A stretch of DNA of 64,000 bases, taken from the IMG/VR virus record IMGVR_UViG_3300047089_000152, positions 40,151 through 104,150 of that record; one strand, written 5' to 3'. Shown here piece after piece: positions 3,146 through 40,761 of this stretch (position 1 is its first letter; every line of letters starts with the position of its first letter). Source of the DNA: a virus. Position numbers and translations under genes: made by a program. The notes beneath the pieces were generated by a model that saw only the letters and a list, made by a program, of their open reading frames with translations, had not been told where the DNA came from and searched no databases.

Positions 3146-3154
3146 TGGTACGCT
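3146..3154 (+). promoter_or_regulatory. extended -10 promoter upstream of a pentamer mini-array
   Basis: TGGTACGCT, the same motif found before other mini-arrays and leaderless genes. Confidence 0.6.
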
Positions 3155-3169
3155 GTGGGTACAGCAAAC

Positions 3170-3303
3170 GGACCGGAAGGGAAAGGCTGGGCGCGGCAGG
3201 CATCGCAGCGGCCGGGATAGCAGCGGATCGGAGCGGCAGGACAGGATTGGCAGGGCACGGCTGGGCTAGGTGTGGCTGGGCTGGGAACGGAATGGATTGG
3301 ACA
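3170..3303 (+). ncRNA. GGH-NN pentamer mini-array (2 units), putative guide RNA
   Basis: 13 pentamers, GGCAG-GACA delimiter at 3235, then 12 more pentamers. Confidence 0.75.
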
Positions 3304-3370: not shown

Positions 3371-4036
3371 ATGCCACCACGCAAGACCACCACAGGCGGA
3401 CCAGTCCAGCTCACCAGGCTGGCAGAAGAAGTCGCCCAAATCCACATCGCCGGGGCTACGCCACTTATTATTCATAAATGGTCGGAAAAGGCGCTCAACC
3501 AGATGCGGATCGCCCAGTCCGGGGCAATTAAGCCGCCCCGCGAACCCAAGAACGCCGAAGAAAACGCCCACGCGGCAACATACTGGGTCGACGTCGCCGA
3601 GACGATCCCCGGCATCCCCAGCGTCTCATTCAAGGCCGCCATGGTCGGAGCCTGCCGGTTCTTCGACGGCCTCCCCATGACGACAGCAAAATTGCTGTTC
3701 TTCGTCGACGGGGTCGTCAGCGAAGCCAAGGGCGACGCGCCAGCACGCGACCTGCTCGTCCCGATTATCTCCGGCCCTGGGGAAATGCGGGAAGACACCC
3801 CGCGCAACGACAACGGAAACCCGGACCTCCGGTACAGGAATCAGTTCTTCCCGTGGAAAGCCGTACTCAACGTGCGGTTCATGCCCGCGAAGATCGCCCC
3901 CGAATCCGTCATCGCGCTAGCTGACGCCGCCGGTCGTGGCGGTGTCGGAGAATGGCGTCCATCCGCACCGAAAAGCGCGACTGGCACATACGGCCAGTTT
4001 CGTGTCATCACCCGGAAGGAATGGGAGTCGGCCTAA
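3371..4036 (+). CDS. stand-alone Cas7/RAMP-like protein, putative guide-RNA-binding filament
   Basis: N-terminal strand IAGATPLIIH, GIPSVSFKAAM (cf. RAMP IPxSSxKG helix), C-terminal glycine-rich loop GRGGVGEWRP...GTYGQFRV; flanked by repeat arrays. Confidence 0.7.
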   Translation: MPPRKTTTGGPVQLTRLAEEVAQIHIAGATPLIIHKWSEKALNQMRIAQSGAIKPPREPKNAEENAHAATYWVDVAETIPGIPSVSFKAAMVGACRFFDGLPMTTAKLLFFVDGVVSEAKGDAPARDLLVPIISGPGEMREDTPRNDNGNPDLRYRNQFFPWKAVLNVRFMPAKIAPESVIALADAAGRGGVGEWRPSAPKSATGTYGQFRVITRKEWESA

Positions 4037-4037
4037 A

Positions 4038-4595
4038 ATGGCGACCATCACCGTCGAACAGCAGTGGGCGTTCAAATCGGGTGCGCGTGTCCCGGGTGGC
4101 GTCCACGCCGAGGATGTGGTGCGTGAGAAGGAACAGATGGAAGACCACCTGGGCCGCCTCGCCACCACGGAGGAAGCCGCGGAAATGGTCCTCCGCTGGC
4201 CTACCAAGTACAAGGCGCACCGGGCGTTCGCACCGGCAACCGAGAAAGAAGCACTCCACGAAGCAGTGGTACGCGGTGTTCGGAGCGCCTGGAGTTCCGT
4301 GATTCAGGTCGACGTCGAAATCACCGAGGTCACCAACCGGATTTCCGGTGATATCGAGATCGCAACCAGGCGTGTCGACGCACCCGAAGTGAGATGGTTT
4401 CACGCCGTGCCAGCACGCGTCGGCGACACGCAACGAGTTTATGACTCGTTGCCGAATATCGCAGCCGATGCTGACAAGGAAGCGGCGCTGTCCGAAGATC
4501 TCGCCACGCAAGCACGCAACTTCTCCGCAAAAGTAGCCAGCGTCACTGGCGAGCTGGCGCGGTTGCACAAGTTGCGCAGCACCGCCGGAAATTAG
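4038..4595 (+). CDS. partner protein of the Cas7-like gene, function unknown
   Basis: ATG 1 nt after the upstream stop; predicted helical; sits directly before the main array. Confidence 0.7.
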   Translation: MATITVEQQWAFKSGARVPGGVHAEDVVREKEQMEDHLGRLATTEEAAEMVLRWPTKYKAHRAFAPATEKEALHEAVVRGVRSAWSSVIQVDVEITEVTNRISGDIEIATRRVDAPEVRWFHAVPARVGDTQRVYDSLPNIAADADKEAALSEDLATQARNFSAKVASVTGELARLHKLRSTAGN

Positions 4596-4644: not shown

Positions 4645-5923
4645 GGAGTGGAGGGGCAGGGACTGTCGTGGCAAGGAACGGCAGGGCACGGAGTGGATTG
4701 GCAGGATAGGCTCGGCGCGGCCAGGCGGGGAGCGTTTCGGAGTGGCATGGATTGGCTGGGACTGGCAGTATCGGATCGCAGTGGTCAGGGTAGGCAAGGC
4801 CCGGCCAGGCGGGGCTCGGTATGGCCTGCACTGGCGGGGAACGCAATGGAGTGGCAGGACCGGTGTGGAATGGCTGGGACGGGAACGGCGCGGTAGGGAA
4901 TGGAGTGGCAGGAACGGTGGGGCCGGGCGCGGCGCGGCTAGGCTCGGCGCGGACGGGCATGGATTGGCTGGGCAGGACAGGATCGGAGAGCAGGGGGCTG
5001 GCGCGGCATGGCACGGAGAGGCAGGAGAGGAACGGTCGGGACAGGAGCGGCAAGGAGCGCACCGGCAGGCAGCGGCAGGGAATGGCATGGAACGGACTGG
5101 ATTGGCAGGACAGGACCGGCATGGCCAGGAGGGGCATGTCCTGGAATGGAATGGCAGGAATGGCTGGGTACGGCGGGGCCGGGCGAGCATTGGACAGGAC
5201 CGGCAGTCGCGGAAGGGCTCGGCAGGGACCGGATTGCAGCGGCGAGGATGGGCTAGGCAGGAGCGGAACGGCAGGGCATGGCCTGGATCGGAGCGGCTGG
5301 GCAGGATAGGCATGGATCGGCCTGGGTAGGCAAGGAGGGGCTGGGACGGGACCGGATTGGCAGGGCAGCAGTGGAGAGGCAAGCCGTGCAATGGCGGGGC
5401 GGGGCGTGGCATGGACTGGACCGGCAGGACTGGACTGGACTGGATTGGAGAGCAGGGCAGTGGCAGGGATCGTAGGGGTTCGGACGGGCAGGTTAGGCTT
5501 GGACGGGCTAGGCGTGGCATGGGCCGGCAAGGAACGGCTCGGAGCGGCAGGGATTGGCACGGCTCGGAGTGGCAGGACCGGACGGGTACGACGTGGCGTG
5601 GCTGGCATTGGCAAGGACTGGCAGGAGTGGATTGGCAGGGCCGGGCTTGGCATGGCGTGGCTGGGAATGGCGTGGCAGGACAGGTGGGGCTTGGCGGGCC
5701 GGGGATCGGCACGGATGGGCATGGCATGGCCCGGTAGGGCATGGCAGCATTGGACTGGACCGGACCGGCAAGGCTTGGCTTGGCTGGGATCGGATGGGAA
5801 CGGCAGGAGCGGAGCGGACTGTCGTGGCATGGCATGGCCTGGCGTGGCGCGGATCGGACGGGCAGGATAGGTCGGGCGTGGAATGGAACGGACGGGCTGG
5901 GCATGGAACGGCAGGATAGGAGT
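4645..5923 (+). repeat. main GGH-NN pentamer array, about 21 units, putative multi-guide precursor RNA
   Basis: strict 5-nt periodicity; GGCAG+4-nt delimiters at 4700, 4764, 4853, 4907, 4971, 5020, 5104, 5153, 5202, 5256, 5300, 5364, 5423, 5487, 5571, 5620, 5674, 5743, 5802, 5861, 5910; all spacings are 5n+4. Confidence 0.92.
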
Positions 5924-5980: not shown

Positions 5981-6133
5981 ATGATCTTGTGCTCGTGCGG
6001 CCATCCTGCGGTCGAGCATGACCTGAACCGTTCGGAGACTAAGCGAACAGTTTGCCTGACCACCGAACGGACTACGAAATGTCCGTGCGTGCTATATTCA
6101 CCAGACCTTCGTGATACACTAGAGGTACAATGA
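5981..6133 (+). CDS. small Cys/His zinc-binding protein
   Basis: MILCSCGHPAVEH...C...CPC. Confidence 0.55.
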   Translation: MILCSCGHPAVEHDLNRSETKRTVCLTTERTTKCPCVLYSPDLRDTLEVQ

Positions 6134-6999
6134 ACGAGACCATAGAACGAGAAGACCGCAGGGCCGTCACCGCGCTCACCTCCGGGGAAAACGCCACGAA
6201 GGTCACCGTCAAAACAAGCGACGGCAACTACGAAGAACGACAGCTAACCGTCCACGGGCTCGCACGGCTGATTCCCGTGATCGCACTGGGCGACATGGAC
6301 CGGCTGATAGACGACGTGCGCGAACACGGCGTCCTCGAACCCCTGATCATGTTCCAGGGACAAGTCCTTGACGGACGCAACCGGCTCGCCGTAGCTTCGG
6401 TCGTCGGCGTACCCGTGCAGCTCACCGAATTCGACGGAGACGAAGCCGCAGCCAGAAACTTCGTCTGGTCCGCGAACGCTGCGAGGCGGCACCTGTCCGT
6501 CCCCCAGATCGCGCTGGCCGCTGAACGGTTCGGTTTCGTCGACGCCGCCAAAGCCGAAGCAGGCCCCGACGACCCCAACCTGGATATCCGCTCGACGGTC
6601 GCACCATGGGCGCGAATCGCCGCGCGAAAGGTCGGTGCGATCACCCCGGCTACACTGGAACGGTTCCAGCAAGCCAGGATCCCCGAGGCACCCGACACGA
6701 TGCGCCGGGTCGATTCCGGTGAGATCCGCCGGGTCGACGTCGCGGTCAAGGAAGCGGTCGCGGAGCGGACCGTGCTCACCGGCCGTCTCATCCAGGTTCC
6801 ACCCCCGGTTGCGCGTACCGCGTGGGACCGGCTGGGCTGCGCGCGGGGTGACGTTCTCGCCGCGGAACGCGCCATCCTGGCAGGGGACTGGGGTGGGATG
6901 GAAAGGGACCAGTTCGCTGTCCGCGCCCGTGAAATCCAGGGAGCCCTGATCAGGATTCAGAATTTGTATCGTTATGGATCGGGCGGCAGGACCGGTTAG
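6130..6999 (+). CDS. ParB/Srx-like N-terminal domain protein
   Basis: LIDDVREHGVLEPLI...VLDGRNRL...SANAARRHLS. Confidence 0.85.
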   Translation: MNETIEREDRRAVTALTSGENATKVTVKTSDGNYEERQLTVHGLARLIPVIALGDMDRLIDDVREHGVLEPLIMFQGQVLDGRNRLAVASVVGVPVQLTEFDGDEAAARNFVWSANAARRHLSVPQIALAAERFGFVDAAKAEAGPDDPNLDIRSTVAPWARIAARKVGAITPATLERFQQARIPEAPDTMRRVDSGEIRRVDVAVKEAVAERTVLTGRLIQVPPPVARTAWDRLGCARGDVLAAERAILAGDWGGMERDQFAVRAREIQGALIRIQNLYRYGSGGRTG

Positions 7000-7057
7000 G
7001 ACGGGCTAGGAATGGCTGGGCTGGGCATGGACTGGAATGGCAGGAATGGAATGGCTA
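6985..7057 (+). ncRNA. GGH-NN mini-array (1 full unit), putative guide RNA
   Basis: GGCAG-GACC + 9 pentamers + GGCAG-GAAT. Confidence 0.75.
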
Positions 7058-7323
7058 AGCCGGATTTCGCCCACGGCGTGCAAGGCTACAACTGGCACAA
7101 GTGCCGGTGCGAACAGTGCCGGGCGGCTAACTCCGCCCGGTCCCGTACCTCCCGCGCTGCCCGCAAAGCACGCACCGCGGCGGGTGACCCCGCCGTCCCG
7201 CACGGGACCAGGGGCGGGTACACCAACTGGGCGTGCCGGTGCCTGCCATGCTCCCAGGCCAACAGCGAGGCGTGCCTGGAATACCGGAACGCCCACAGTA
7301 ACCGTCAGGACATCGTGACCTGA
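7051..7323 (+). CDS. actinophage-type zinc-finger protein
   Basis: two HG..GY...CRC..C repeats. Confidence 0.75.
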   Translation: MAKPDFAHGVQGYNWHKCRCEQCRAANSARSRTSRAARKARTAAGDPAVPHGTRGGYTNWACRCLPCSQANSEACLEYRNAHSNRQDIVT

Positions 7324-22598: not shown

Positions 22599-22667
22599 GC
22601 ATTGGAGGGGCATGGCATGGCACGGCCCGGAGTGCTGGGGTGGGGAACGGAATGGATGGGCAGGATA
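22599..22667 (+). ncRNA. GGH-NN mini-array (1 unit), antisense to the late operon
   Basis: 12 pentamers + GGCAG-GATA, intergenic. Confidence 0.8.
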
Positions 22668-39351: not shown

Positions 39352-39429
39352 GGCAGGATGGGATTGGCATGGCGCGGCAAGGTAGGGCTCGGATCGGCAA
39401 GGAATGGATAGGAACGGCAGGAGTGGCAG
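39352..39429 (+). ncRNA. GGH-NN mini-array (1 unit)
   Basis: GGCAG-GATG + 11 pentamers + GGCAG-GAGT, followed by a hairpin. Confidence 0.82.
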
Positions 39430-39477: not shown

Positions 39478-40761
39478 TCATCCTGCCGCCATATGTGAGT
39501 CGAAGAAATTATCCTTCGGGCCGATATGGGAACGGAACTTGTACTTACGGATCAATTCCTCGCGGATTCCCACGAGGTCTTCTGAACTGAGTTCCGCCGT
39601 GCGGACCACGGAATCGGTACCCATGTTCTTTTGCCCGTAGGCGCCAAGTCCTTCTCCAGTAAATATCAGGTCGGTAGCTATTCCCTCGTCCATTTCCCGC
39701 CTGAATTCTGTGCCGCGATAAGGATAATAGATAGCAATCTGCGCATCATCTATCCCTGACGTGCAGATGAACCGTTCAGTCTCCGCGATCGTAGCGCGTG
39801 TCTCGCCGGGTAGCCCGATCATCACGAATGCTTTCACGGTGATGCCCGCATCCTTGCAGTACCGGACACAATCGTAATTCTGCGTGGCGGTTGTCTTCTT
39901 ATCCATCCGGTCTAGCATCTGCTGCGACCCGGATTCCGCACCAAACGCCACCTCGACACACCCCGCATCGGCTAGCGCCGCGGCGAACTCCGCGGTCATG
40001 AATTTCGCGTGCACATTGCAGCGAAATCTTAGCCCGGAGCGCTTGAGTAGGTCCAGGTACGGCTGGCACTTCCCCAAATTAATTGCAAAAAGATCATCAT
40101 ACAAATACACGCCCTCATACCCGAGCGTCACGATGTCGTCCAGTTCGGCCTCGGCGTTGCCCAGCGAAGTCCACCTGGTCAGCGTCCGCGCGTCTTCACA
40201 GAACTTGCACGCCATCGGACAGCCCCGGCCGAGCATCATCGTGGTCGAGTTCAGCCCGGCCAGGGTGTACGAGTAGTTTTTCAGGAACCCAGGCTCACCC
40301 AGCCGGTCCGGGCGGGGCATCGCCGCTAGTTCCTGCCGGGGGATCTGGTCGTTGCTCATGACAGGAACCGTTTTGTTCTGCACGATGCCTGGCAGTGCCC
40401 GCTCCCCGTCGCCTGCCACCAGGTAGTCCCACAGCCCGGCCTGGTCGTCTGCGTTCATCTCCCGGCCGTAATGCCGGACGTGCGGGCCGCCTGCCACCAG
40501 AACTTTGGACGGCCAGCGGCTCCTGATCGCGCGGGCTATCCGGTTAGCCTCGGCGCGCTGCGGTGTCATCACCGAGACGCCTACTATGTCAGCGTCCGCG
40601 AACTGGTCCAGATCCTCGACGTCGTATTCGTCTACGACGCTGATCTTAGTACCGGGGGCCTGCGCGGCCACCGCGGATTTCAGGTACAGCAGGCCGAGGG
40701 GCGGGTAGATACGGTCGTCGTCCAGGAACGGGGACCGGCAGGAAACCAGGGACAGTTTCAT
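39478..40761 (-). CDS. cobalamin-binding radical SAM enzyme (class B methyltransferase-like)
   Basis: PPLGLLYL, GGPH, GDGE B12 domain; GRGCPMACKFC; GAESGSQ; IGLPGET. Confidence 0.92.
   Translation of the reverse strand: MKLSLVSCRSPFLDDDRIYPPLGLLYLKSAVAAQAPGTKISVVDEYDVEDLDQFADADIVGVSVMTPQRAEANRIARAIRSRWPSKVLVAGGPHVRHYGREMNADDQAGLWDYLVAGDGERALPGIVQNKTVPVMSNDQIPRQELAAMPRPDRLGEPGFLKNYSYTLAGLNSTTMMLGRGCPMACKFCEDARTLTRWTSLGNAEAELDDIVTLGYEGVYLYDDLFAINLGKCQPYLDLLKRSGLRFRCNVHAKFMTAEFAAALADAGCVEVAFGAESGSQQMLDRMDKKTTATQNYDCVRYCKDAGITVKAFVMIGLPGETRATIAETERFICTSGIDDAQIAIYYPYRGTEFRREMDEGIATDLIFTGEGLGAYGQKNMGTDSVVRTAELSSEDLVGIREELIRKYKFRSHIGPKDNFFDSHMAAG

Follow-up and report, generated by a model that had tools for sequence, protein, structure and literature searches.

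A candidate VIPR guide unit beside a near-matching ParB-like allele in a high-GC phage

Why should a short run of G-rich pentamers stand at the very end of a ParB-like gene whose last codons it nearly matches in antisense, with every third base of the target skipped? The tract, here called the mini-array, lies at 6985-7043 (+) of the window, which is the whole stretch of 64,000 nucleotides that was analysed. The window corresponds to bases 40151-104150 of its source genome, a 104,150-bp virus record of IMG/VR with 64% G+C.

The arrangement recalls VIPR, in which Vipr, a phage-encoded minimal Cas7-like RAMP, binds vrRNAs of 9-16 GGY/NN pentamers (10.64898/2026.04.26.720920, 10.64898/2026.04.26.720927). 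The NN pairs read double-stranded DNA under a “1-nt skip rule”, with the skip mostly on the codon wobble position (bioRxiv 10.64898/2026.04.26.720920). VIPR silences competing phages and satellites, and seven types have been described with the GGY repeat “or a related consensus” (10.64898/2026.04.26.720920, 10.64898/2026.04.26.720927). The studied examples are the type II system of Escherichia phage SUSP1 and that of a Pseudomonas fulva prophage (10.64898/2026.04.26.720920, 10.64898/2026.04.26.720927). The first descriptions of VIPR date from 2026, and what is known of its biology derives almost entirely from these two enterobacterial and pseudomonad type II systems; the present example is from a high-GC phage with a different repeat consensus and array type.

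The mini-array within the VIPR locus

The mini-array opens with a GGCA tetramer at 6985-6988 (+), a punctuation mark at which the register shifts by 1 base, as it does between the units of the main array described below. The guide part follows at 6989-7038 (+) and consists of ten GGHNN pentamers (GGACC GGTTA GGACG GGCTA GGAAT GGCTG GGCTG GGCAT GGACT GGAAT), and a second mark, GGCA(G), closes the unit at 7039-7043 (+). The leading GG is present in 10/10 pentamers, the third base is A in five, C in four and T in one, and the NN pairs in order are CC TA CG TA AT TG TG AT CT AT. Three trailing pentamers (GGAAT GGAAT GGCTA) at 7043-7057 (+) are too few for a guide and run across the ribosome-binding site and start codon (ATG, 7051) of the gene that follows. 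This next gene (7051-7323, +) is small and Cys-rich, with PHROG matches to HTH/HNH-type families. The tract matched no Rfam family.

On the upstream side, the gene with a ParB-like N-terminal domain (289 aa; 6130-6999, +) reaches into the tract. The stop codon TAG stands at 6997-6999, after the six final codons S-G-G-R-T-G, and the first 15 bases (five codons) of the mini-array are thus translated as the gene tail. The name “ParB-like” is a fair but weak label that is suggested by a match of residues 53-127 to the PHROG family ‘ParB-like partition protein’ (E 0.004) and by 29% tblastn matches to annotated partition proteins; the protein had no Pfam match.

A lone Cas7-like RAMP gene, vipr (221 aa; 3371-4036, +), is located approximately 3 kb upstream of the mini-array. 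The AlphaFold2 model of its product has a pLDDT of 86.7, and the top Foldseek matches are Csm3/Cas7 (E 4e-5), while a sequence search of the PDB returned the SUSP1 Vipr as the sole match, with a weak E of 0.56. The gene thus agrees with the published description of Vipr as a minimal Cas7-like RAMP of ~20 kDa that is encoded with repeats. More than 600 homologues were found, and GG-pentamer arrays lie beside the gene in 28 of 39 IMG/VR loci. The gene that follows vipr (185 aa; 4038-4595, +) is by its position a candidate accessory (vap) gene. It belongs to no Pfam, PHROG or Atlas family, so that the accessory gene differs from published VIPR systems in having no recognisable family, and the 10-kb surroundings of 39 other Vipr genes contain no homologue of it; hence the accessory gene is not conserved.

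The main staggered vrRNA array occupies 4645-5914 (+), a stretch of 1.27 kb with 238 GGM/NN pentamers and 20 GGCA tetramers. It comprises approximately 21 guides of 8-17 units, and there are no indels besides the GGCA tetramers. The first repeat base is G in 100% and the second in 90% of the pentamers, and the third is A in 48% and C in 45%. At all junctions GGCA is directly followed by GG, which gives a 5n+4 spacing. An upstream array with two guides (3170-3303, +) lies behind a TGGTACGCT box at 3146, and most other arrays and satellites have a TGGTANNNT extended -10 box 12-17 nt ahead of them.

With ten pentamers, a conserved GG-containing repeat and hypervariable NN pairs, the mini-array falls within the description of a vrRNA (9-16 pentamers, GGY or related); by its sequence, the repeat is a “related consensus” and not GGY. 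Staggered vrRNA arrays, as the legend of fig. S18 describes them, have units that overlap by 1 nt (10.64898/2026.04.26.720920). The same overlap is present here, and the same GGCA mark flanks the mini-array on both sides. Because it follows the grammar of the main array and is punctuated at both ends, we regard the mini-array as one more guide unit of this VIPR system; judged from its letters, it is a single vrRNA guide unit, with the ParB-like gene between it and the main array. This overlap also accounts for the delimiter “GACC” of the original prediction, which belongs to the first pentamer, GGACC, whose initial G doubles as the last base of the GGCAG before it. The CC of the delimiter does pair with the GG of GGA, as had been proposed, but its status as part of the code was not established.

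The system resembles those of SUSP1 and P. fulva in its lone small Cas7-like RAMP, in pentamer guides with GG and one more base fixed and NN variable, and in being phage-encoded. It further resembles them in the skip on the wobble position and in proposed targets that are conserved codons in genes of competing phages. In contrast to type II, the repeat has A or C (48%/45%) in third position in place of a pyrimidine, its arrays are not followed by an invariant 3' tail or a pseudoknot, and the units are joined by the 1-nt-overlap GGCA junction. The system was therefore not filed as type II; on sequence grounds it is a staggered-array VIPR system whose repeat is GGM in place of GGY. It shares the 1-nt overlap with the staggered arrays of that fig. 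S18 legend (10.64898/2026.04.26.720920), the junction here being GGCA followed by GG.

Consensus scans of the tract found neither a sigma-70 promoter nor a terminator, and the mini-array is without a TGGTANNNT extended -10 box of its own, unlike the other satellites. Before the ParB-like gene, a TGATACACT box is present at 6112-6120 (+) that differs at one position from the TGGTACNCT extended -10 boxes preceding other satellites. This box is likely the promoter of a ParB-like transcript that would carry the mini-array. The lack of an own box and the near-identical box before the gene therefore make co-transcription and processing at the junctions likely. In the window, extended -10-like boxes of the form TGGTAC(G/A)CT occur on the + strand at 8, 3146, 39328, 50280, 54101 and 60553, where they precede the VIPR locus, satellites and some genes; from their sequence, they may constitute a phage-specific promoter class.

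The near-target in the ParB-like gene and its homologues

The reverse-complemented NN pairs of the guide are AT AG AT CA CA AT TA CG TA GG, and the in-frame codons at 6949-6978 are ATC AGG ATT CAG AAT TTG TAT CGT TAT GGA. With a 1-base skip, 8/10 dinucleotides and 18/20 bases agree, and the skip always falls on codon position 3. The mismatched codons, Asn AAT and Leu TTG, are the two central units. The original prediction of a gapped antisense guide to codon positions 1-2 with the wobble base skipped is thus supported, and the rule that it described is the published VIPR rule. The near-target as a whole, codons L273-G283 (LIRIQNLYRYG) at 6946-6978 (+), ends 7 bp 5' of the mini-array. Its first codon is included when the 3' GGCAG is read as a pentamer, which adds CT, fits Leu CTG at 6946-6948 and raises the match from 8/10 to 9/11. 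Such a terminal GGCAG, taken as a coded or PAM-like unit, fits only one of four satellites and was not established. Pairing of the third repeat base with the wobble base was also considered, and was rejected with 2/10 by hand count.

In a scan of both strands of the 104,150-bp genome, which covered the 1-nt skip register, the site at 6949-6978 was the single 8/10 match, with a frame offset of 0. No site scored 6 or 7, and the next best scored 5/10 (seven and five sites in the two-strand scan). Forty order-shuffled guides reached a best score of 6, and the dinucleotide frequencies of the genome give an expectation of 2.4e-4 matches of at least 8/10 per genome and 4.5e-6 within 1 kb. The match is clearly not at chance level, the outcome on which the original prediction would have fallen.

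The prediction had also decoded the guide as I-R-I-Q-(Q/H)-I-Y-R-Y-G against I-R-I-Q-N-L-Y-R-Y-G in the phage itself, and had proposed a comparison of C-termini among homologues. In the 70 homologue clusters that could be aligned at segment 273-283, the decoded residues do exist: LIRIQQIYRYG, exactly what the guide spells, is present in 5/70, and ten more clusters differ from it by one residue. Gln is found at position 5 in 24/70 and Ile at position 6 in 19/70. Within the segment, L273 and I274 do not vary at all, and R275, I276 and Y280 hardly do. The allele of the phage, LIRIQNLYRYG, is compatible with the guide at 9/11 positions at the protein level. Other homologues (P0002, P0012) have QNL too, and the allele is therefore no escape mutation private to this phage.

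At the DNA level, approximately 1 Mb of other loci was compared with all guides of this phage, and the only match of at least 80% was that of the mini-array guide to the homologous site of a metagenome relative (L008). This site scores 8/10, equal to self, and its central Q-Q-I codons match; the two misses are an Arg codon, CGG where the guide has AG, and a Gln that replaces Arg. In L007, which is more distantly related and comes from a 119-kb phage with neither Vipr nor a mini-array, the score is 4/10. The first Arg codon is CGN in these two relatives, both read at the DNA level, unlike the AG of the guide, which fits the rare AGG codon of this phage. Protein-based retrieval from metagenomes yielded L008 and one distant locus only. 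Exact gapped-pattern scans of IMG/VR and GTDB genomes found no perfect target, and no DNA scoring above 8/10 was found, the five LIRIQQIYRYG alleles being compared as protein only. There was no close relative of the phage among GenBank phages and no relative of the ParB-like gene in GTDB genomes.

Satellite guides and the target of the mini-array

The phage carries other satellite guides; in those at 22604, 39352, 46426 and 50304, and in one on the minus strand upstream of the window, the repeats close with GGCAG and a further G. Their flanks differ, and GGCAG-G is the sole element that recurs after the repeats; this junction is absent from the upstream array at 3225-3303. The best self matches of the satellite guides at 6989, 22604, 39356 and 46426 lie 36, 354, 691 and 67 nt away. 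They are in codon register (offset 0) for 6989, 39356 and 46426, with 22604 not among them, and all four are imperfect (64-80%, n=4). The guide pairs with the coding strand in 4/4, in line with the predicted antisense-to-coding polarity, though four cases are too few for significance. Main-array guides showed no self match above the shuffled level. The main-array guide at 5747-5801 has an 8/11 self match approximately 43 kb upstream of the array, outside the window, where the shuffled maximum was 7.

The satellite at 39352 (guide 39356-39415) offers a parallel to the mini-array. It decodes a Phe in the gene for a B12-binding radical SAM protein (39478-40761, -). At the site 40076-40110 (-), this phage has VYLYDDLFAINL and 48/72 homologue clusters have VYLFDDLFAINL. 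Across the 72 clusters, Phe occupies the guide-decoded position in 48, and Tyr is found in this phage alone. One other VIPR phage with dispersed arrays was available for comparison (G004, the IMG/VR record of L079), a 108-kb phage with a Vipr 43% identical to that described here. Its mini-arrays at 11.7, 17.9, 73.4, 80.5, 91.9 and 97.9 kb have a canonical GGY repeat and a GGCAG-CAGN junction, and none of these satellites has a near-target adjacent to it or elsewhere in its own genome.

The homologue residues, the L008 match, the self matches of the satellites and the radical-SAM parallel together favour a guide directed against related alleles. We consider it probable (roughly 0.6) that the mini-array is a dispersed vrRNA aimed at the ParB-like alleles of related phages, from which the own copy is spared by two central mismatches. 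The RNA would probably be transcribed with the ParB-like gene and excised at the two GGCA(G) junctions, as VIPR vrRNAs are processed to about 50-100 nt and bound by Vipr. A Vipr protomer would then sit on each GGH, with the ten NN pairs displayed; by the mechanism given in the preprints, these pairs would read double-stranded DNA two bases on, one off. The guide would spell (L)-I-R-I-Q-Q/H-I/M-Y-R-Y-G, the conserved C-terminal codons of the ParB-like gene in some related phages, and would therefore silence that operon in a co-infecting relative, presumably as a roadblock. Two mismatched dinucleotides in the middle of the own copy, with Asn in place of Gln and Leu in place of Ile, would presumably protect it. 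In SUSP1, the filament and R-loop grow 3' to 5' along the vrRNA (10.64898/2026.04.26.720920, 10.64898/2026.04.26.720927); by analogy with that system, which is of a different VIPR type, growth here would reach the two mismatches after four or five units. A guide 7 bp from the spared allele would also keep weapon and antidote linked through recombination.

The guide could instead act on its own genome, binding 6949-6978 with the mismatches tolerated and providing feedback on read-through into the guide and the downstream genes, or on an internal promoter. The preprints count a site as a target when at least 80% of the NN pairs match, and their authors saw no such self hits in their sets (10.64898/2026.04.26.720920, 10.64898/2026.04.26.720927). 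The present guide differs from those sets in having an 80% match in its own genome. The own site, with 8/10 units and 18/20 bases, counts as a target by this cut-off, and tuned self-regulation is therefore a live rival. It also stays a live reading because the L008 site scores no higher than self and the five alleles with the decoded residues are known as protein only. Further points in its favour are the AG of the guide, which suits the rare AGG codon of the phage itself, the T-rich skip bases of the footprint, which could mark real binding, and a -10-like TATCGT at 6967-6972. This box lies inside the footprint, 12 nt before the array, at the same spacing as the promoters of other satellites, yet the consensus promoter scan found nothing here. 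Against self-regulation, the four satellite self matches are all imperfect, the two mismatched codons spell a natural rival allele, and in the radical-SAM parallel the residue of this phage is the unique odd one among the 72 clusters. We therefore regard true self-targeting as rather unlikely.

It is less probable still that the unit is a relic, one that once matched the gene or arrived by recombination and is now decaying without function. The absence of a perfect target from the collections searched (IMG/VR and GTDB genomes) and of an own TGGTANNNT promoter, which the other satellites have, would suit such decay. However, GG is kept in every pentamer and both punctuation marks are intact, the match is far above the level for unrelated sequence, and the differences from self are non-random in that they spell an existing allele.

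That the tract is no guide at all, being a parS-like ParB-binding repeat, a translated Gly/Trp-rich tail or a chance product of G-rich DNA, is very improbable: it does adjoin the ParB-like gene and its first five codons are translated, but the pentamer grammar follows Vipr genes, no ParB-like homologue lies within 10 kb of 39 Vipr relatives, the ParB-like relatives (L007, L008, G001-G003) lack an array or lack Vipr, 2e-4 such matches are expected by chance and Rfam gave no match. The candidate of a parS site or ParB-binding repeat was accordingly rejected, as the repeats and ParB-like genes do not co-occur in either direction.

A guide against relatives has a published counterpart in solo or dispersed vrRNAs and in guides that target vrRNA or vipr, which matched rivals better than self (bioRxiv 10.64898/2026.10.15.759431). 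The mini-array is similar in that it stands apart from the main locus, would be aimed at relatives and would spare the own copy by mismatches. It is not ‘solo’ as defined there, since Vipr is encoded ~3 kb away on the same genome, and its proposed target differs in being an ordinary phage gene rather than vipr, a vrRNA or a satellite (10.64898/2026.10.15.759431). In the portions of the VIPR preprints that were searched, we did not find a description of a guide directly beside its own spared allele.

Weapons encoded beside a resistant allele and inherited with it are familiar from the free-standing homing endonucleases of T-even phages (marker exclusion) and from toxin-antidote pairs. The likeness would lie in the linkage of weapon and resistant allele; here no nuclease is known. 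The locus makes it testable how many mismatches, and which, spare self, and whether a guide stays linked to its spared allele and is passed on with it in phage populations that recombine.

Wobble bases at the own near-targets

The footprint at 6949-6978 is also unusual at the positions that the guide skips. It is the lowest-GC3 stretch of the ParB-like gene, with 4/10 against a gene mean of 0.75, and 3 of the 281 windows of the gene have an equally low value. The wobble T/(C+T) is 0.83 inside the footprint and 0.14 outside (Fisher p 4e-4). At the radical-SAM footprint, 40076-40110, the corresponding values are 1.00 and 0.25 (Fisher p 2e-5). At both footprints A/(A+G) at wobble positions is unchanged, and the shift is specific to pyrimidines and lies on the guide-paired strand. 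The edges of the radical-SAM patch are sharp, with GAT GAT and TAT inside and gac gac and tac just outside. The ParB site of the relatives L007 and L008 shows the usual C or G in wobble positions. The effect was not clear at the own sites of the other two satellites. Across the genome, 183 of 26,842 windows qualify as T-rich wobble patches; these other patches were considered as hidden near-targets of other guides, and none matched a guide.

According to the preprints, Vipr makes no base-specific contact with the target, and the skip base sits in a narrow pocket (10.64898/2026.04.26.720920, 10.64898/2026.04.26.720927). The T patches may have arisen because the skip bases were recoded for self-protection, because near-cognate binding flipped these bases out and exposed them to C-to-T damage, or because a small patch was transplanted; at the ParB site only, the creation of the -10-like TATCGT box is a further possible cause. 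We tentatively suggest, as a doubtful though not negligible proposition, that the skip base is not neutral, that C has been changed to T at the own sites by self-protective recoding or as a deamination scar, and that the cassette is a selfish weapon-plus-antidote unit. In the self-protective variant, a C at the skip position would aid engagement with the invariant Gs or fit the skip-base pocket, and a T would not. In the deamination variant, chronic near-cognate binding would have flipped bases out and left the patches as its scar. It becomes testable whether the system is truly blind to the skipped base, as the own sites carry T at positions that are mostly C in the relatives and in a gene that otherwise favours C. 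The published argument that a gapped code defeats synonymous escape depends on the answer.

The 64-kb window has just two copies of TTTGTATNNT, against 0.21 expected, at 6963-6972 (+) and at 40096-40105 (-). Both copies lie inside the two footprints, and each encodes Leu-Tyr as TTG TAT.
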